UHGV virus genome: UHGV-0324630
Strand: one strand, 5' to 3'
Origin: a virus
DNA length: 37,666 nt
Shown here: piece after piece, positions 3,184 through 37,666 of the stretch
Position numbering within the stretch: the first letter of the stretch is position 1
Layout: every line of letters begins with the position of its first letter
Translations under genes and position numbers: made by a program
The notes under the pieces: generated by a model
Told to the model about the DNA's origin: nothing
What the model saw: only the letters and a program-made list of their open reading frames with translations
Database searches by the model: none

Positions 3184-3534
3184 ATGAAAAAAAACGCTAA
3201 TAATCCATACTCCAAATTTCGTAATGGCGTAGAACGCCATGTACACCACGTCGCTACCAGTGCATCACGTAGTAACAGTCGCTATAACCTGAACGAGACG
3301 CACGCAACACCGGATGGCCACGCTGTAAAACAAATCGGCGAACATGCCTGGCTGATTGAGAAAGCTGGAATCGTGGTCCACAAATGCCCACACAATCCGT
3401 TTACCGGAAACCGCATTTTTGCATTGAACTGCGGCGACAATCACTTCGGGCAGGATTTCACATTATACGAAGCACTTCGCACGGTTGATCGTCTGCTTCG
3501 CGGGCAAAGTTTTATTAAACAGGCTGATTTATAA
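3184..3534 (+). CDS. Hypothetical early protein
   Basis: 116-aa ORF in the early operon; no motif recognised. Confidence 0.55.
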   Translation: MKKNANNPYSKFRNGVERHVHHVATSASRSNSRYNLNETHATPDGHAVKQIGEHAWLIEKAGIVVHKCPHNPFTGNRIFALNCGDNHFGQDFTLYEALRTVDRLLRGQSFIKQADL

Positions 3535-3544
3535 CAGGTGCTTT

Positions 3545-3824
3545 ATGACCAAAGAGCATGCACAAGGTGTATTTATCCGTTTTATTGATTTTCGCGGTGA
3601 ACTGTTATTACGCGCATCAGCCATTGACGGAGTTGTTCCATCCGAAAAAAAACGCAGCTACTTACGTTTATCTGAACGGTACGCGCCTGACTGTGGAGCT
3701 TCCGTACCAGACCGTACGAGAAATCATTAGCGAAGCTGAAAAGGCACGTCAGGTTAATGGCGATGAACCCTATATCGAAATTATTTGTATGGATTCAGAA
3801 GCTGAAATTCAGAAAGCAGATTAA
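3545..3824 (+). CDS. Hypothetical early protein split between two frames at an A8 homopolymer (3645..3652); frameshifted gene or homopolymer sequencing error
   Basis: Frame A (ATG 3545, RBS AGGTG) reads MTKEHAQGVFIRFIDFRGELLLRASAIDGVVPSEKK then ends at 3730; the +1 frame continues ...NAATYVYLNGTRLTVELPYQTVREIISEAEKARQVNGDEPYIEIICMDSEAEIQKAD to 3824. Removing one A from the A8 run fuses them into a single ~91-aa ORF that fills the gap between flanking genes. Confidence 0.45.
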
Positions 3825-3835
3825 AGGGCGTTGCG

Positions 3836-4078
3836 ATGGGCAAAGAATATAAAACTCTCATTAACAAAGCACTTGAACGATTTTATTTTCGCTTAAGTGC
3901 ATCAGGCGCTCATGCTGAACGTGCAGCCCGTGACTCATTGACCAGGGCAATCCGGAGTTTGTATGACGTTGCTTTTTACGCTGATGATCTGGATGCACTT
4001 AACGAACTTTCCGAGCTGATCTGTGCCGCAGAATGCGGGGAACACATTGAACCATATAAGCTGGGGAATATCGCATGA
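3836..4078 (+). CDS. Hypothetical early protein
   Basis: 80-aa ORF; its stop overlaps the next start (ATGA). Confidence 0.55.
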   Translation: MGKEYKTLINKALERFYFRLSASGAHAERAARDSLTRAIRSLYDVAFYADDLDALNELSELICAAECGEHIEPYKLGNIA

Positions 4079-4188
4079 GTATATTTATCTCATGGCTTGT
4101 TCTGATTATTTCGGTGGCCTGCGCCATTGGGATTATGCGAATTATTCATTCAGTAAAAAAGATTGAACGCTTTTTCACTGACAAATAA
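4075..4188 (+). CDS. Small hydrophobic peptide (37 aa, single predicted TM helix); not in the supplied ORF track
   Basis: ATG at 4075 overlaps the preceding stop (ATGA); translation MSIFISWLVLIISVACAIGIMRIIHSVKKIERFFTDK, stop TAA 4186-4188. Confidence 0.4.
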   Translation: MSIFISWLVLIISVACAIGIMRIIHSVKKIERFFTDK

Positions 4189-4280: not shown

Positions 4281-4697
4281 ATGAACGCAAAAGAAAAAAA
4301 TATTATCAATACATTAAAAATAGTGTCAGCAGAGCAAGACAAGCTGTCCAGGGCAGCCCAGAAAGATAATCAACATATGGCAGCGCTTTACGCACTGACC
4401 ATCGCAATAGCCACCTCTGAAGCAGCCAAAGTTATTGAGGAACAGAGCAAAGAAATCGACACTCTTAAAACACAGTCAACAGTTGCAGCCATGAATCCGT
4501 CCAGCATTGGACGCTGCATTTATATTCTTGGTTCAGCAATGATGCTGCAATACACCATTATTGCCGAACTGCACGGCAAATACCTGATAACGCCTTACCA
4601 CACAAAAGAGTCAGAGCTTCTGACAAATCTCCGCCTGATAGAACGCTCTCAAGCTGTATTCATTGATGACGCGCAACGTGCCGTATTTAACGCATAG
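4281..4697 (+). CDS. Hypothetical early protein
   Basis: 138-aa ORF with GGAG RBS. Confidence 0.6.
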   Translation: MNAKEKNIINTLKIVSAEQDKLSRAAQKDNQHMAALYALTIAIATSEAAKVIEEQSKEIDTLKTQSTVAAMNPSSIGRCIYILGSAMMLQYTIIAELHGKYLITPYHTKESELLTNLRLIERSQAVFIDDAQRAVFNA

Positions 4698-9379: not shown

Positions 9380-10339
9380 ATGAAAATTTGTATCGACGAC
9401 GGCTCCACCAACATCAAGCTGGCATGGACTGAGAACGGCGAACGCCGCAACGCCATCAGCCCGAACAGCTTCAAGTCGGAATGGTCTGCGCCGTTCGGTG
9501 GCACGCAGCCCGCGAACTACATGCTTGATGGCGTGCGCTATGGTTTTGATCCTGTCAGCGATCGCTTTGTCCAGACGACCGACACGCAATACCAATACAG
9601 CGATGTGAATGTCATTGCCATTCATCACGCGCTGGTCAAATCAGGCATCACGCCACAGGAGGTGGATGTGGTTGTCACCCTGCCACTGAGCGAGTATTTC
9701 GACACAAACGCACAGCCGGACATGGCCAACATCAACCGCAAAAAAGCGAACGTTATGCGCCCGGTGGAGTACCAGAACGGCAAAGCATTCACTATCCGTA
9801 ACGTACGGGTTATGCCTGAATCTATTCCGGCTGGCTTTAAAGCACTGGCTGACATGAGTCCGTTTGAATCCCTGCTGATTGTGGATTTAGGCGGAACCAC
9901 GCTGGATGTGGCAAAGGTTCAGGGACAACTGGCAGGTATCAGCCAGGTGTTTTGCGATCCACACGTAGGCGTTTCCCTGATGGCCGATGCAGTACTGTCG
10001 GTGATGGCCACTAACGGTATGCGTACCAGTCACCACATCGCCAATACCATTATCGAACATCGCCATGATGAAGCTTGGCTGCGCCAGCACATCCACAATG
10101 ACGCGCATTACGCCAGCCTGATGGCGGTTATTCGTGAAAAGGAAGAAACACTGAAACAACGCGTGATCCGCGCGCTGGCGGGTTTTTCGGGTTACGGGCG
10201 GGTGATGGTTGTCGGTGGCGGAGCGGAGATTGTGGCACCCGCTATCCGCGAAGCCTGCGGGGTTAATGCGACTTTCATCGCGGACGGGGTGCCACAGTTT
10301 GCTCTGGTTAATGGGCTGTACGCAATGGACAAGGAGTAA
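9380..10339 (+). CDS. parM: ParM/StbA-family actin-like ATPase (type II partition NTPase)
   Basis: 319-aa ORF; N-terminus MKICIDDGSTNIKLAW...ISPNSFKSEW...YQYSDVNVIAIHHAL and later PESIPAGF, IVDLGGTTLD, FSGY..VMVVGGGAE align closely with my memory of plasmid R1 ParM (MLVFIDDGSTNIKLQW...ISPNSFKREW...). Confidence 0.9.
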   Translation: MKICIDDGSTNIKLAWTENGERRNAISPNSFKSEWSAPFGGTQPANYMLDGVRYGFDPVSDRFVQTTDTQYQYSDVNVIAIHHALVKSGITPQEVDVVVTLPLSEYFDTNAQPDMANINRKKANVMRPVEYQNGKAFTIRNVRVMPESIPAGFKALADMSPFESLLIVDLGGTTLDVAKVQGQLAGISQVFCDPHVGVSLMADAVLSVMATNGMRTSHHIANTIIEHRHDEAWLRQHIHNDAHYASLMAVIREKEETLKQRVIRALAGFSGYGRVMVVGGGAEIVAPAIREACGVNATFIADGVPQFALVNGLYAMDKE

Positions 10340-10343
10340 ACCA

Positions 10344-10655
10344 ATGACGACACCAACCAGACGGATAAGTTTCTATCTGAAGCCCGCCGCCGTCAAGAAC
10401 GAAGGCGAAGCATGCGCCTGGCTGGACAGCCTTACACCAGAAGCCCGTAAAAACGGCCAACGCGTGGCTTTTCTGGCCGGGCTGGCGCTTCTGAAAATGA
10501 ATCCGGCAGAGGCTTACCGACTGGCAGCATGGGCTGACGATGAGGCGTTATCAGTGACACAAACCAGGACAGAACGCCCCCTGTCACAGCCAGTACCAAC
10601 CGCACAGATAACCAGTCAGATGGCCGGAAATATCAGGGCGTTATTTCCTGAATAA
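10344..10655 (+). CDS. parR: ParR-like centromere-binding adaptor (RHH family)
   Basis: 103-aa ORF from ATG 10344 (AAGGAG RBS); RISFYLKPAAVKNEGEACAWLDSLTPEARKNGQRVAFLAGLALLKMNP and C-terminal IRALFPE resemble R1 ParR (IAFKLNPDV...DSIPQGERSRLNRAALTAGLALYRQDP, LRSLFPKE) from memory. The longer track ORF from 10209 overlaps parM and is probably not the true start. Confidence 0.8.
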   Translation: MTTPTRRISFYLKPAAVKNEGEACAWLDSLTPEARKNGQRVAFLAGLALLKMNPAEAYRLAAWADDEALSVTQTRTERPLSQPVPTAQITSQMAGNIRALFPE

Positions 10656-10718: not shown

Positions 10719-11102
10719 ATGAGCAAAATCAACTATCAGGCATTACGTGAACGTTATTCACCTGCACCAGTACCAAAATGCCCTATTTGCGGCGAAGAAA
10801 TGTCAATTCAGCGAATATCTGGAGCACAGGTTGTTTATGCCTGCTCCAGTTATGGTGATGATGGAGATTTCAAAGTTGGTCGAACTCTTGTCGACGAACA
10901 TTATGAAAAATCACGCGTAACAGTGTTGGATGTCGGGGCCCCTGAAGTATTGGCGCTACTTGATTGACTGGAAACCAAAGACAACCGAATCACTGAACTG
11001 GAAAAAATCGCCACTGACTATGCACTTAAATTCCAGAAAGCACAGGACGCATTAAAGTACGCCGCTTTGCTGCATAGCAGGACAGCGCAGCTAAAATACT
11101 AA
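10719..11102 (+). pseudogene. Zn-ribbon/coiled-coil small protein interrupted by an in-frame TGA at 10965..10967 (probable TGG to TGA nonsense change); 82-aa product if terminated
   Basis: ORF 10719..10967 (CPICGEEM...YACSS) stops at TGA, but the same frame continues protein-like for 44 more codons (LETKDNRITELEKIATDYALKFQKAQDALKYAALLHSRTAQLKY) to TAA at 11100-11102. Reading TGA as Trp gives a seamless ...LALLDWLETKDN... junction. Confidence 0.4.
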
Positions 11103-11192: not shown

Positions 11193-11723
11193 TTATTCAG
11201 CATCGTCTCGTGCAGTCTGTGCATACGTCACAACAACGCCCAATGCATTAGTTTTCTTTTCAACATAGATAATATTGTCATATTCATAGTTACCATACGG
11301 ATAGCAAATAAGAATATTTTTATGCAGTTCGGGATCATCAACAAACGCTCCGGAACAGCTTCTTGAACTACCAGATGTATACTCATACGGTGCAACATAT
11401 GATGATGTTACTCCTGGTAAAAAATAAGTCACCATCATAAGAGGGATAATCAGGAATATCCCTGTAAGAATGCAAGAGCCAGCATAAACCTTCAGGTATT
11501 CCGACAGTCCTTTCCAGCCACTTTGCTTCACTACCCCCCTCTTCACCAGAAACAAGGAGAAGAAAAAGGACATACCCATACTACACAAGATGTAATAATT
11601 GGATATACGCGAATTAAGATATGTAATCCTGTAGATATCTGCCCTCCACCAGTAAAAGAGGAAAATAATCCCTAGCACTGAAACAGTCATGCAAATCAAA
11701 TAAGGATATGAATCTTTCTTCAT
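11193..11723 (-). CDS. Integral membrane protein (about 4 TM helices plus a C-terminal soluble region), unknown function; AT-rich cargo gene at the position of the P2 tin/old accessory locus
   Basis: 176-aa ORF; hydrophobic segments LICMTVSVLGIIFLFYWW, YILCSMGMSFFFSLFLV, VYAGSCILTGIFLIIPLMMVTYFL; markedly AT-rich relative to the phage backbone. Confidence 0.65.
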   Translation of the reverse strand: MKKDSYPYLICMTVSVLGIIFLFYWWRADIYRITYLNSRISNYYILCSMGMSFFFSLFLVKRGVVKQSGWKGLSEYLKVYAGSCILTGIFLIIPLMMVTYFLPGVTSSYVAPYEYTSGSSRSCSGAFVDDPELHKNILICYPYGNYEYDNIIYVEKKTNALGVVVTYAQTARDDAE

Positions 11724-11795
11724 GTCTTGCGCTCATTAAAATTTCCCTGCTACGAACAAATTTACCATCCGTTTTTTGCGCAGAAAACAGCACGA

Positions 11796-11828: not shown

Positions 11829-12253
11829 ATTTTTTTGAACGACTTTTTACCCTTCCGCCCCGCATGGCGGCTGGATCCGTCAAGGATCCGTGCGTGCACA
11901 AAAAAAAGCGTTTTTTCTGCGCGCAGGTGACGGGGGAACAGCCCGCGTTTCAGGGGGTAAATAGCATTCCCTGAGCGATGTCGCAGCGACACAACAGAAT
12001 GGCTGTATTTCTCACGCTGAGCGTGAAAAAGACGTGAGGGCTTTTGATTTGATGGGGTAACAGATAAGGCCGCCAAAATCGCACTGAGGCGGCAGGAACA
12101 TGCAGTCAACGCGGTGGGATTGCGTAAGAGTCTGACCGTCGATGATGGCAATAAGCTGGAAGGCGTCGTGAAATTATCTGATTGATACAGGAGCTGGAGA
12201 GTCGGGGCATAAATTTTTTATGCCCCGGCGAAGCAGCAGACAAGCGAAGCGCG

Positions 12254-27939: not shown

Positions 27940-30783
27940 TCAATCTTTATCGTAAAAACTGCCACGCCCGGCACGGGCGCGCCGTTCCATTTCTGCCCTG
28001 ACCATTTCACCGACCAGTTTCGCCAGTTCGCGGGGATTCTGCGTAACAACGTTATGCAGATGAACATGAATTTCACCACCAAATCCGGAGGCAACAGGCT
28101 CCCGGTTACGGGAAGTTACAGGAACTGATGCCACTGGAGATCGTATGGCCTCCGCCACCGGGCGGGAGCTGGCCGCAACAACAGGGACCAGCGCCGGAGG
28201 CAGCGGAGCCGGGACCACGGGTGTGATATTAATTGCGGGGGCAGGCTTACTGACCTGCGCAATCTTCCGCTCCTGCCACTCTCCACGAACAGCAAGTGCG
28301 CGGGGCAGGTTCTTAAAGACAATATCGCCGGGGCCAATGCGTTTTTTCGTCTCATCAACCAGCTTACCTGTGTTATCAGCAATTTTGCTGAGTCTGCGTA
28401 GCGTCCCGGTATTGCTGTCTGTGAGCGGTTTGTTGTCTTTGGGTTTATTACCTCCGGTGCCATTGCCATTTTCCACAGGCTTCGGCGGATTGATTTTCGC
28501 CAGGTCACCCTGAAGCAAGGCAACCTTGTCCTGAAGAATGGCCGCACGCTGTGCGTCTTCGATTTTCTTGCGCGCTCTTTCCGCTTCATCCGGAAGGACG
28601 CCAAGTTTTTCAAGTATCCACGCCAGCGTATCCAGTAGCATTTTTGCAGGTGTCAGAACAAGCTGTAACGCACCGCCAAGAACGTTACCGAATATCTCGC
28701 CAGCACTGGTACATTTATCCAGCGTTTCCTTGCTGGACTCCATCGGTGACAGCAGCGATTTAAACCAGTTAAACACCTGGCTGATCCCGCTTCCGATTGT
28801 GTCAAAAACAGGACCAAACCGTTCAAAGGTTTCGCGCAACGGGGTCAGCCTTTCCATAATCCCGCTGAACACCCCGGCAAAAAATGCCCTGATGGGATCC
28901 CAGTATTTCCAGATAAGAACGGCAGCTCCGGCAAGCGCAGCCACGATAAGACCAACCGGACTGAACAGCGCCCCGATAGCGCCTCCCAGTAAAGAAACGG
29001 AACCCGTCACCATTCCCCACAGCGCAGGCAACACCCTGACGACATTCATTGACCGGGTAAGAATGTCAAAACCAAGACGCAGGGTGGCCAGCTTCCCGTA
29101 AAGCACCCCAATAACCAGCGACAACGAGCCAATCGTTGCAGTCATTGCCAGCAACGCACCGCCTGCTATCAGTAGCTGGCGCGTCAGTACCGGATGGGCC
29201 TGCGCCAGCGAGGTGATTTTTTCAAGCACCCGCGTGAGCCACTGCGTGACAGAACGCAGCGGACCGTCAACCAGATCACTGATGCGAATACGAAGACCTT
29301 CCCATGCGCTGTCGAGATTTTTCAGGTCCCCATCAAGATTATCGGCCATTACTTTTGCGACGCGATCGGCCTCTCCCCTTGCCCCCTGCAATTCTCTGGT
29401 CAGTTTTTGCAGCTCTCCTGAACCAGCCGCCGCAACAAGCGTCTGCAAACCAACGAACGCCTCTTCTCCGGCGATGTCCTTGAAGAAGGAAACCTGGTCC
29501 ACCTGTCCGTATTTTTGTGTCGCCTTATAGAGATCAAGCAGCACATCCTCCATCGGGCGCATTTTGCCTCTGGCGTCAGCAACTGACACCCCCAGCTCTT
29601 TCAGTGCATCAGCCGCAGCTTTTGGCGGTGATGCAAGGCGGGACAGACTTGCGCGCATGGCCGTACCAGCATCGCTTCCGCGAAGACCATTATTGGCAAG
29701 CATCCCGGCCATGGCTGCCGCTTCTTCAAGACTGATACCAAGTTTTGCGGCAACCGGACCGGTATACTTCATGGTTTCGCCCAGCGCGCGTAAATCAGTA
29801 TTGGTCCGGGTGAATGCTGCTGTCAGCGTATCGCCAACACGGTCCATTTGATCGGCTGTCAGGTTGAACTGTGTGAGGATATTGGAGCCTATATCAGCCG
29901 TCTCGCCGAGTTCGACGCCACCTGCCAGCGCCATATTAAGAACACCGGGCAATGCGGCCTGAATGGCCTGCGGAGTAAAACCAGCCATTGCCAGAAAGCT
30001 CTGCCCACTGGCGGCATCACTCGCAGTAAACTGTGTTTCAGAGCCAAGTTTTAACGCCTGCTCACGCAGCGCCTTAAACTGCGGGCTGTTTTTGTCGATT
30101 CGCGTCAGTGCCTGAACACGGGACATCTCTTTGCCGAACCCGATCGCAGGCTGCAAAAAACGCCCGGCAGCATAGCCGCCCGCCGTTGCCGCACCAATTG
30201 CCAGCGCACCACCTGTTTTCAGTTTTCCCGCTGTTTCCTGCGCGCGCGAATACCGCTCACGCGCCCGTGTTACACGCGCAAGCGCCTGCCGTTCGCGTTC
30301 AAGCTGGTTGTTGTACTGTTCGGTGCGTCTGATGGCCTGCTGGATGGTGTTATCGCTGCCTGTCAGGGAAATGCCGTGGCGTTTCAGCTCTCCGCCAAGC
30401 TCCCGCATTTTCTGAATTTCCCGTGTGCGCGATTCATTCAGGCGTTCAAGCCGGGTGCTTAACTGCTGCATCAGCTTTTGTTGTTTTTCGCTGAGCACTG
30501 TACCCGTGCGTTGTAACTGATTAAGGGCGTTAAGCTGGCGTCGTGCTTTCAATATGCCAGCATCCGCTTTACTGACAGCGTCACGGGCGCGCTCAAATGA
30601 ACGCGCCTGACGCTCGAGATTTTTGATCGCCCCCTGCGTTCGCTGGATGGAGTCACCAAACTGCCCCATCAGGCGGCGGGCGTTTTCGGCAGGCCGGGTC
30701 AGCCTGTCAACGGCGCTGAAAGCGACCCGGATGTCAAGAGTCTTCATTGTCTGCATTCCCGCTGCGAAGTGCCGCCCGCTCAC
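27940..30783 (-). CDS. T: Tail tape measure protein, P2 gpT-like
   Basis: 947-aa ORF; long coiled-coil N-terminal half, Gly/Ala-rich hydrophobic central segments, position between E/E' and U. Confidence 0.88.
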   Translation of the reverse strand: MSGRHFAAGMQTMKTLDIRVAFSAVDRLTRPAENARRLMGQFGDSIQRTQGAIKNLERQARSFERARDAVSKADAGILKARRQLNALNQLQRTGTVLSEKQQKLMQQLSTRLERLNESRTREIQKMRELGGELKRHGISLTGSDNTIQQAIRRTEQYNNQLERERQALARVTRARERYSRAQETAGKLKTGGALAIGAATAGGYAAGRFLQPAIGFGKEMSRVQALTRIDKNSPQFKALREQALKLGSETQFTASDAASGQSFLAMAGFTPQAIQAALPGVLNMALAGGVELGETADIGSNILTQFNLTADQMDRVGDTLTAAFTRTNTDLRALGETMKYTGPVAAKLGISLEEAAAMAGMLANNGLRGSDAGTAMRASLSRLASPPKAAADALKELGVSVADARGKMRPMEDVLLDLYKATQKYGQVDQVSFFKDIAGEEAFVGLQTLVAAAGSGELQKLTRELQGARGEADRVAKVMADNLDGDLKNLDSAWEGLRIRISDLVDGPLRSVTQWLTRVLEKITSLAQAHPVLTRQLLIAGGALLAMTATIGSLSLVIGVLYGKLATLRLGFDILTRSMNVVRVLPALWGMVTGSVSLLGGAIGALFSPVGLIVAALAGAAVLIWKYWDPIRAFFAGVFSGIMERLTPLRETFERFGPVFDTIGSGISQVFNWFKSLLSPMESSKETLDKCTSAGEIFGNVLGGALQLVLTPAKMLLDTLAWILEKLGVLPDEAERARKKIEDAQRAAILQDKVALLQGDLAKINPPKPVENGNGTGGNKPKDNKPLTDSNTGTLRRLSKIADNTGKLVDETKKRIGPGDIVFKNLPRALAVRGEWQERKIAQVSKPAPAINITPVVPAPLPPALVPVVAASSRPVAEAIRSPVASVPVTSRNREPVASGFGGEIHVHLHNVVTQNPRELAKLVGEMVRAEMERRARAGRGSFYDKD

Positions 30784-34281: not shown

Positions 34282-34680
34282 GCAAATTAGATGTATTGAC
34301 TCAAACCAGAACTGACACACTCACAGCACAGTGCCAGACCCAATCTGGCAGCCCGCTTTGTGCCTAGAGCAGGTGTTGCTTATGTAACAGTTAATCCACG
34401 GATAGTGGTCATGAATGCTGGTTGAAGTTGTATTGCCATGAGTGGTCAATTAGGGACTCACTTATTATCGCGTGCTCACCATTGATGGGTAAGATCATGC
34501 ATTTCGGCTACTGTACTTCGCGAATCCTCCACACACAGGCAACACCTGATTTAAGAACAGAGGGAGATGATGACGCAAGGAAGATTTATTATCGTGCATG
34601 TGGCAGATGATCTTTTAGCTGCCGGAGTGATAAATTACACCTATTTTCGATAAGTGTTTTTGTTATAGAACATTAATTTC

Positions 34681-35820
34681 GTGGGAAACAATAAAGTGAA
34701 ATTAGGAAGAAATGATAAGTGCTGGTGTAATTCAGGACTTAAGTATAAAAAGTGCCATCTTGGTCGAGACCGTGAAACTCCGGTATCCAAAGCCGAGGCA
34801 CTGAAATTTTCAAAGTCTCTCTCGCAGAGAAAGGCATGTTATGCGCCAGCATCCATGCACGAAGATTGTGATAAACGCATCGTTCAGGCGCATACGATAT
34901 CTAAGAGCAGTAGCCTTAAGGCGATCGCCGACTCCAGCAATCACGTCATGGGGGTGATAATGAACTTAGCAAGCCTGATGAGAAACAACGGAAAATGGCT
35001 TCCCGAGAAGATCGGTATCAATCAGGCATCCACTTTTACAGGATTTTGTGCAGTTCATGACAGAATCTTGTTTTCATGCCTAGAGAACGAAAAATTTACA
35101 GGCACGGACGAGCAGTGCTTTGCCTTAATGTTTCGTTCATTGTCTAAAGAAATTTACGCCAAAGAAGGGGGAGTGCTATCTTCCGATTTTGCTAAAAATG
35201 CCGATAAAGGAAAGCTACAAGTTGAACAGTATTATATTCAGAAATTAATCGACCAGCACCAAAGTGGCTTAAATGCAGCAATAATTGAATTAAATAATCT
35301 TAAAACTAGCCTCGACCGCATCCTACTTAGCAGGCAATTTTCAGAAATTGAAAGTGTTATCTTCACTTTTGCAGAGCCTTTACCAATTGTAGTTTCGTCA
35401 ATTCTTTCACCGGAGAGGGATTTCGATGGGACCAAAATTCAGGATTTGAGCGATCTTACAGTGTCGGCGGAACAAGTATGTTTCAATGCTTTTTCCTGCG
35501 GAGGTAAGGGATATGTAGTGTTCAGTTGGCTGAGAACTTCAACAATTATCAGACGTTTTATACGGACACTAATTAAGATCCCGGCTAACAGGATGTTCAA
35601 TACCCTTCTGTATTTTTTCTTCACAAAGGCCGAAAATACATATTCATCCCCTGAGTGGTGGGACAGGCTCAGTGATAAACAGCGAGAGAATATCGGCAAC
35701 ATGATTATGTCAGGGGTTGAATTTTTTGGCAGACCTACATCACAGGTTGATCATTCCGTTGATTATAACGCCGCTGCACTTGAAGAGATAACATGCAGCA
35801 ACAACGAAATTTGCAGCTGA
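34681..35820 (+). CDS. Uncharacterised protein with N-terminal SEC-C-like zinc-binding motif (C-W-C-x8-C-H); AT-rich cargo gene inserted between gpD and ogr
   Basis: 379-aa ORF (GTG start, start uncertain; alternative GTG at 34696); N-terminal KCWCNSGLKYKKCH; rest unrecognised; strongly AT-rich with about 400 bp and about 290 bp non-coding flanks. Confidence 0.65.
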   Translation: MGNNKVKLGRNDKCWCNSGLKYKKCHLGRDRETPVSKAEALKFSKSLSQRKACYAPASMHEDCDKRIVQAHTISKSSSLKAIADSSNHVMGVIMNLASLMRNNGKWLPEKIGINQASTFTGFCAVHDRILFSCLENEKFTGTDEQCFALMFRSLSKEIYAKEGGVLSSDFAKNADKGKLQVEQYYIQKLIDQHQSGLNAAIIELNNLKTSLDRILLSRQFSEIESVIFTFAEPLPIVVSSILSPERDFDGTKIQDLSDLTVSAEQVCFNAFSCGGKGYVVFSWLRTSTIIRRFIRTLIKIPANRMFNTLLYFFFTKAENTYSSPEWWDRLSDKQRENIGNMIMSGVEFFGRPTSQVDHSVDYNAAALEEITCSNNEICS

Positions 35821-36109
35821 ATGTTTACATGCTGTTAGAAAAAGCGGGCTGAACAATCATTTCGGGATTGTAACAGATAAGATGGCACTGCCCGCTTGCT
35901 TCCCGATATGTACCTCAGCCAATAAACTTATGTAAGCAACCGATTTCCATTTATGCGGAGGTTATCAAAGTTGTTGGAGTTGCGAACTTCCGCTCTTCGC
36001 ACAAAGCGTACCGCTAGGTTTGATTGTATTCTGGCTGCGCAAACTGTCAGTTGGAGTCTGAGCTATTACAACTTAGAATAGCGGCAGCACCACGTTAAGG
36101 GAGGTCGCT

Positions 36110-36370
36110 ATGTTCCGTTGTCCGCTTTGTGGCGCATCTGCCCGAATCCGCACCAGTCGTCCGGAAAACGATTCAAACACTGTGCGGCAAAAGTATTACC
36201 AGTGTAACAACCTGGAATGCGGCGTATGCTTCTCAACACTGGAAGCTTTCCATAAATTCACATCAAAACACGCCTCCGGCGTTCACTCTTCGGAAGGTAT
36301 CCCGTGGCATGAGCTGCCAGCTTCACACAGGGGAAACAATCAGATGAGTTTGCCTTTACCTCAGAATTAA
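36110..36370 (+). CDS. ogr: Ogr/Delta-family zinc-finger late-gene transcription activator
   Basis: MFRCPLCGASARIRTSR...QKYYQCNNLECGVCFSTLE matches the P2 Ogr pattern (MFHCPLCQHAAHARTSR...RYHQCQNVNCSATF, from memory): C-x2-C ... C-x4-C zinc finger. Confidence 0.85.
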   Translation: MFRCPLCGASARIRTSRPENDSNTVRQKYYQCNNLECGVCFSTLEAFHKFTSKHASGVHSSEGIPWHELPASHRGNNQMSLPLPQN

Positions 36371-36561
36371 CAGGCAGAATTGCCGGAGTAACAAAAAAAC
36401 GATAGATTACCCGCGGGTGCCTTTCGGCTGATGGTCGGAGGGAATACCCGAAGGCCGGATGTGGAAAGGCCCCGGAAAACATTTCTGTTTAACCGAGGCC
36501 CTAACATATCTACCTTAAGCAAGTGATAGGTTAGCGCCTCTCCAACAAAGGAGCAAGCGCT

Positions 36562-36702
36562 ATGTCGCAAAAATCGCTTACGGCCATCACGTTCTGCGTG
36601 ACGGTAATCCTCATCATCTGGATGCTACACGGTTCGCTGTGTGAAATACGGATGAGCTTCTGGGGAGCGGAGTTTGCGGCGTTCTTACAGTGTAAGCAGT
36701 AA
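36562..36702 (+). CDS. Hok/Gef-family type I toxin (small membrane toxin)
   Basis: 46-aa ORF with AAAGGAG RBS: MSQKSLTAITFCVTVILIIWMLHGSLCEIRMSFWGAEFAAFLQCKQ; N-terminal TM helix then the SLCEIR motif characteristic of Hok/SrnB/PndA; not in the ORF track (below 60 aa). Confidence 0.8.
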   Translation: MSQKSLTAITFCVTVILIIWMLHGSLCEIRMSFWGAEFAAFLQCKQ

Positions 36703-37172: not shown

Positions 37173-37453
37173 ACCGATACACTCTATTACTAACCAATCA
37201 TAGCCCACATCATAAAATCGAGATGAGGAGCACAATACCTTTAACAAGAAGGTGTCATAACGATAATATGTCGTGCAATTCATCAAAAAAAAGATCTATA
37301 TCAAAGAGATAGAACTCTTATCAGTGCTTCAGACATCGGCATTCGAGGCAGCAGAAAAACAGTAAATCTGACGAATTTGCCTTTTCCCAAGATGTTGTCA
37401 GATTAAAAAGATAGATTAGCGCAGGTACCTGTTGGTGGATTGCAGGAGGAAAA

Positions 37454-37558: not shown

Positions 37559-37644
37559 AGTTTAAACAGCACGTGCACTACCATTGTTTCTGCATATCGC
37601 CACACCATCGCCACTCTACCGCCATTGCACAAAATACAAATACG

Positions 37645-37666
37645 AAAAAACCACCCGAAGGTGGTT
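37645..37666. terminator. Hairpin AACCACC-cgaa-GGTGGTT preceded by A6 at the window edge; terminator-like (U-tract on the minus strand; plus-strand tail cut off by the window)
   Basis: Read directly; window ends inside the 3' arm. Confidence 0.35.

Follow-up and report, generated by a model that had tools for sequence, protein, structure and literature searches.

A heritable one-base expansion of an A run that probably inactivates a small early gene in a P88-like prophage of Escherichia coli

Described systems and the layout of the locus

Homopolymer frameshift pseudogenes, which PGAP labels 'frameshifted', carry a one-base expansion of a run in an otherwise conserved and selected ORF. In contingency loci (Haemophilus, Neisseria, Campylobacter, and some phages), slipped-strand mispairing in a homopolymer shifts the reading frame and produces +1 and −1 variants. 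In transcriptional slippage systems (Thermus dnaX with A9, Shigella mxiE with T9, IS elements with A8–A9, and poly(A) rescue in endosymbionts), a run joins two overlapping frames; the out-of-frame arrangement is conserved, and the runs usually have ≥9 nt (PMC1088944). In prfB-type +1 frameshifting, the frame entered downstream is shifted by +1 from that of the start codon. The split gene described here has traits in common with each of these systems. From homopolymer frameshift pseudogenes it differs in nothing material, and its one mild peculiarity is the repeated occurrence of the change in several lineages, with persistence in small clades. The gene is very probably a pseudogene, formed when a genuine and heritable A7 to A8 insertion by replication slippage inactivated a small accessory early gene. 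The frameshift is already known, being flagged in RefSeq, and is an ordinary pseudogenising mutation.

The whole stretch of DNA that was analysed (the window, 37,666 nt) is a P2-like prophage of the P88/Sp13 group (genus Xuanwuvirus) carried by E. coli strain 631 (CCUG 73937, CP040263). The prophage is integrated beside yecA. A 124-nt direct repeat (99% identical) flanks it, between yecA and a tRNA-Leu/Cys/Gly cluster. The repeat lies at the window ends (1–99 and 37642–37666) and at 4303–4426 and 41969–42092 of L009. With this repeat at both flanks, the window spans almost exactly one attL-to-attR prophage and runs essentially from one att repeat to the other. The features around the split gene are as follows.

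3184..3534, + strand: DUF4761 gene, the upstream neighbour; it starts with its own in-frame A8 (3187–3194), used as a control tract
3545..3824, + strand: frameshifted early-operon gene of 92 codons, phrog_3800, probable pseudogene here (profile match; PGAP 'hypothetical protein, frameshifted', EST51_RS10925, in RefSeq strain 631)
3545..3730, + strand: ORF of 61 aa expected to be translated from the native start (exact product also called in 6 other contigs)
3645..3652, + strand: A8 homopolymer; the ancestral state in this allele is an in-frame A7 (single-base gap against an intact relative; census)
3651..3824, + strand: native C-terminal coding part, residues 36–92 plus stop, now in the +1 frame (purifying selection; strands 4–6 and both helices)
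3836..4078, + strand: DUF4754 gene, the downstream neighbour; it normally begins 11 nt past the stop of the focal gene

The original prediction was of an early gene split across two frames at an A8 run, with the two parts filling the slot between the neighbouring genes. Both points were confirmed: the A run at 3645–3652 has exactly 8 bases, and the split gene occupies the space between the DUF4761 gene and the DUF4754 gene. Frame 0 runs from ATG 3545 to TAG 3728–3730. It reads MTKEH...SEKK (MTKEHAQGVFIRFIDFRGELLLRASAIDGVVPSEK) and then continues out of frame as K-R-S-Y-L..., so that its 61-aa product consists of 35 native residues followed by 26 aberrant residues. From 3558 onwards, the +1 frame is open. 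Its native C-terminal part extends from AAC 3651–3653 to TAA 3822–3824 and contains ...NAATYVYLNGTRLTVELPYQTVREIISEAEKARQVNGDEPYIEIICMDSEAEIQKAD. This part lacks its own start signal; the sole upstream ATG in frame is at 3558. Separate expression of the +1 ORF from ATG 3558 was considered and rejected: the ORF would begin with out-of-frame sequence inside the N-terminal coding region, and the upstream AAAGAG is just 1 nt away from this ATG, an improper Shine-Dalgarno spacing.

Deletion of one A gave a single ORF of 279 nt. The predicted restoration of one ORF by an 8A to 7A change therefore held, and its length is 92 aa and not about 91 aa. In the in-frame A7 state, GAA AAA AAC encodes Glu34-Lys35-Asn36, and the extra A is a frameshift mutation. 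The restored junction is ...SEKNAATY..., with a single Lys, and not ...SEKK-NAATY; the junction peptide of the full-length 92-aa protein is ...VVPSEKNAATYVYLNGTR. In the A8 state, about 105 nt of untranslated mRNA precede the DUF4754 gene.

The intact gene and the predicted effect of the insertion

The restored protein matched phrog_3800 with E = 4e-59, with residues 1–92 aligned to profile positions 1–95 of 95. This full-length match shows that the two open frames are not a chance pair. Apart from the extra A, the gene was identical to the intact 279-nt gene of close relatives (WP_000159462.1), among them strain 160-11H1. A codon alignment of nine alleles gave dN/dS of 0.07–0.6 in both halves in the fused frame, and 49 of the 95 variable sites in it were at third codon positions. 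The proposal that both frames looked protein-like was thus borne out by the family match and by purifying selection on both halves.

An AlphaFold model built with 21 homologues (mean pLDDT 83) showed a single compact domain in which five strands are followed by a long helix, strand 6, and a second, short helix. In this model, the tract sits in the β3-β4 loop. According to the model, a product cut after residue 35 would keep strands 1–3 and lose strands 4–6 and both helices. Since only three strands would be kept, the A8 allele most likely loses its function. As for what that function is, a Pfam search with the restored protein gave no family, and a Foldseek search against the PDB gave no match at E ≤ 0.001. 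Among viral models, all Foldseek matches were small, uncharacterised β-rich proteins, which offered no functional lead.

Other lesions were seen in the family. Six other members (P0039, P0043, P0047, P0066, P0068, and P0085) were frameshifted elsewhere in the gene, for example by loss of one G in CAGGTT or of one A in GAAATC. Such shifts move the C-terminus into the frame of a small ORF that lies at 3757–3852 in the window (...LMAMNPISKLF...QIKGRCDGQRI). With lesions at these other sites, the gene has been broken in several ways across genomes.

Tract length, authenticity, and recurrence of the A8 allele

The original prediction proposed a comparison of tract length in related prophages, and this comparison identified A8 as a rare variant. 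Among about 670 complete E. coli genome records with the allele, about 660 had A7 (98.7% of copies), 7 had A8, and 2 had A6. The A8 records comprised 6 exact 72-mer matches and 1 with a SNP. All seven complete-genome A8 copies, from strain 631 and six others, were flagged 'frameshifted' by PGAP. The gene was uninterrupted in 12 of the 12 full-length phage records, and the orthologues were single uninterrupted ORFs, not the two separate genes with independent starts that would have spoken against a split gene. The tract itself was not conserved across alleles. Its position is in a variable loop, where tract length tracks the local codons, as in the following states.

A7: GAA AAA AAC/T, the window-type allele
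A8, in frame: GAA AAA AAA, type phage P88
A5: Chuche and P88_4B11
A4: phage 520873

The P88 type forms a second allele class ('...AQAEKKAVTH...') with an in-frame A8 at the corresponding site (L013–L016, gene 1501–1780; P0102 compared with P0027). A frameshifted A9 form of this class was seen in 24 or more draft contigs, which represent at least two prophage backgrounds; this count includes any clonal duplicates. In complete genomes, 7 of 7 copies of the second class were in frame and A9 was absent. Apparent 'A5' variants of the tract (P0048 and L017–L020) were rejected as real alleles; they come from short deletion-prone contigs in which the neighbouring A run is shortened too.

These deletion-prone contigs also bear on whether the A8 of strain 631 is itself a homopolymer sequencing or assembly error, with the strain truly carrying A7 and an intact gene. 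Homopolymer miscalls are common in long-read assemblies, and several A8 carriers are recent assemblies whose method is not stated. CDE6306 has another frameshifted gene in its prophage, and the indel is the sole difference between JB2 and T28R. However, strain 631 was assembled by Unicycler as a hybrid of Illumina MiSeq and Nanopore MinION reads (PMC7249450), so a miscall in an 8-base homopolymer is unlikely. The prophage is also present, again with A8, in strain E5 (broiler, USA), which was sequenced independently; over 37,666 nt, this copy departs from the window by 1 SNP and 0 gaps. The exact half-ORF products were found in more than 20 further contigs. They occur, for instance, in one NCTC reference genome and one older draft genome, and in assemblies of isolates and metagenomes made from short reads. 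Among the short-read carriers of A8 are SRR21919972 and several isolate and metagenome contigs. Moreover, A8 is common to small groups of closest relatives, and random errors would not yield such groups. Judged by the assembly method and the concordant independent assemblies, the A8 of strain 631 appears to be real. The option of a sequencing error, which the original prediction had listed, is thus quite improbable.

A third genome with the same prophage, FCI1, had A7 and 0 SNPs. All its differences from the window were deletions, at window positions 28788 and 30042–30044 in addition to the tract, and one of them, a CCC to CC change, frameshifts the tail tape-measure gene. In the flank of the FCI1 prophage, yecU was frameshifted too. 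With deletions only, one of which breaks the tape-measure gene, the A7 of FCI1 is either an assembly error or a reversion. FCI1 looks like a deletion-prone assembly, which suggests caution in using it as an 'intact' reference.

The origin of A8 was investigated with a neighbour-joining (NJ) tree built on the 860 nt surrounding the gene and with nearest-neighbour searches. Two pairs of A8 and A7 genomes, JB2 (A8) with T28R (A7) and ADIZ01 (A8) with 160-11H1 (A7), had 0 SNPs in the 860 nt. FCI1, T28R, and TUM9812 carried A7 at 0–4 SNPs in 860 nt, and the A8 carriers CDE6306 and ERR4014442 lay on separate branches of the tree. Small groups made up of A8 carriers alone were also present: 631, E5, and SRR21919972; CFIAFB20180511 and CAVP819; and 51489 and NCTC LR134238. 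Their countries and hosts differ. The scatter of A8 in the tree and the zero-SNP pairs point to expansion at least about six times, followed by stable inheritance. A single A8 origin spread by recombination was considered, but zero-SNP A7/A8 pairs in distant backgrounds favour several origins. Several independent origins are the simpler reading; for the commonest haplotype of the gene, a single origin with recombination is a less likely alternative.

The A8 run of the neighbouring DUF4761 gene served as a control. This gene starts ATG AAA AAA AAC (3187–3194), so that its A8 is in frame, and CGC follows as at the focal tract. Among 504 complete-genome records, the control tract was A9 once (E. 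coli 55989) and A7 once (O157 AR-0427). Off-length tracts were thus found in 2 of 504 records for the control and in 9 of 670 for the focal tract, a difference that was not significant (Fisher p = 0.13). The focal tract behaves as any A run of such length; selection against variants may be slightly weaker in it. The window has two other A8 runs, at 11900–11907 and 37285–37292, which gives 4 in total where base composition predicts about 0.6.

The preferred explanation for the split gene is the slippage insertion with loss of the gene. Replication slippage in the homopolymer would have added one A (A7 to A8). The insertion shifts the frame after Lys35, and translation from the native start then gives the 61-aa product. 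This product would keep the first three β-strands of the six-strand, two-helix domain, by which the gene would be inactivated. The A8 variants persist in prophage lineages, probably with no meaningful recoding to restore the product. Independent slips in several prophage lineages can be attributed to the 7–8 base A run being a mutational hot spot, and the persistence of the variants to the gene being dispensable to the lysogen. Since the phrog_3800 gene has been lost repeatedly by slippage without obvious cost, we infer that it is dispensable for lysogen maintenance; it is probably dispensable for phage spread as well.

Recoding, phase variation, and the surrounding prophage

The full-length protein could in principle still be made from the A8 allele by programmed recoding, either by +1 ribosomal frameshifting on A AAA AAA or by transcriptional slippage. 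Re-pairing of tRNA-Lys in the +1 direction, from AAA 3647–3649 to AAA 3648–3650, would regenerate the wild-type sequence exactly, and long A runs are known sites of RNA polymerase slippage (PMC1088944). However, about 99% of the orthologues are single ORFs that need no shift, and the tract is not conserved across alleles. The region around the tract was searched for stimulatory features. No slow, rare, or stop codon follows the slippery site, the next codons being AAA and CGC. No correctly spaced Shine-Dalgarno element was found; the sole GGAG (3629–3632) is 12 nt upstream, a −1-type spacing, and is absent in other alleles. The 88 nt after the tract folded no better than shuffled sequences (z = −0.18), and no Rfam element matched in 3300–4100 at E ≤ 1. 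The locus thus differs from prfB, as it has neither an in-frame stop or hungry codon nor a Shine-Dalgarno-like element 3 nt upstream, and the shift is not conserved. Frameshifting by −1 on A AAA AAA was also considered; it leads into the third frame and was rejected because that frame is closed.

Rescue at the level of transcription would need RNA polymerase to delete one A in the poly(A) run of the mRNA. In a systematic reporter study, deletion slippage by E. coli RNA polymerase was undetectable on the poly(A) runs that were assayed, and runs shorter than 8 A's gave no activity whatever (PMC6260861). The deletion needed here is of the kind that the polymerase did not detectably make in that study, and in this the locus differs from the known slippage systems. 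Genome-wide avoidance of slippery runs is evident from about 9 nt (PMC1088944). Transcriptional slippage is expected at A/T runs of about 9 nt or more with a conserved out-of-frame state, whereas the tract here has 8 nt and its out-of-frame state is a rare variant found in about 1% of copies. Programmed +1 frameshifting, another option of the original prediction, found no support, as orthologues are single ORFs and the stimulatory features are lacking. Recoding in either form is extremely improbable.

Phase variation was the remaining option. In this reading, the early gene is a contingency gene toggled by reversible slipped-strand changes, perhaps with a polar effect on the downstream replication genes. 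Variants of ±1 have arisen repeatedly, in six or more lineages, and they affect both allele classes (A7 to A8 or A6 in one, A8 to A9 in the other); the second class has its A9 form in the at least 24 draft contigs noted above. The A8 alleles keep an open downstream frame without secondary damage, which suits young pseudogenes but also a reversible switch, and the A7 of FCI1 is a possible revertant. Contingency loci, however, commonly show both states, whereas here a single length accounts for almost all complete-genome copies. The tract (7–8 A) is short for an efficient switch, and many alleles of the gene have A4–A5 in its place. A8 is stably common to prophages from different countries and hosts. 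Variants of ±1 are about as frequent in the neighbouring in-frame A8 run, and the second allele class is in frame throughout the complete genomes.

The results support slippage as the mutational mechanism, as the slipped-strand option had it, and argue against a contingency switch, given the dominance of A7, the lack of tract conservation, and the similar control tract. A contingency gene of this kind has a low probability, about as low as that of a sequencing error. The narrower proposal of a low-frequency switch, in which A7 to A8 or A8 to A9 changes reversibly silence the phrog_3800 protein, is less probable still. If it were true, translation would be uncoupled about 100 nt ahead of the next gene, which might lower the expression of the downstream replication genes and so tune prophage inducibility, and transcriptional slippage on the A9 form might give partial rescue.

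With inactivation by slippage as the preferred reading, the RefSeq 'frameshifted' flag at this locus would stem from a genuine mutation passed on by inheritance, not from faulty assembly. The value of this is mainly in annotation hygiene: the two open frames should be annotated neither as two genes nor as a recoding event. As a by-product, a small conserved early gene of P88-like phages (phrog_3800) was documented.

The rest of the prophage was also surveyed. All structural and replication genes of the strain 631 prophage are intact. Two further accessory genes are decayed, at about 10719–11090 (+ strand) and 11193–11768 (− strand), between the ParM-like genes and the portal gene; these coordinates were transferred from the E5 annotation. 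They are an ead/Ea22-like remnant with an internal stop and a 'frameshifted' hypothetical protein. Both are common to the E5 and FCI1 copies and are thus older lesions. Two decayed accessory genes beside an intact core fit normal erosion of prophage genes. In the E5 annotation, plasmid-like cargo with ParM-type segregation/partition genes follows the replication gene (about 9380–10655). Near the right end (about 34680–36700, E5 annotation) are a second YecA-family gene, an Ogr/Delta-like zinc-finger gene, and a Hok/Gef toxin gene.
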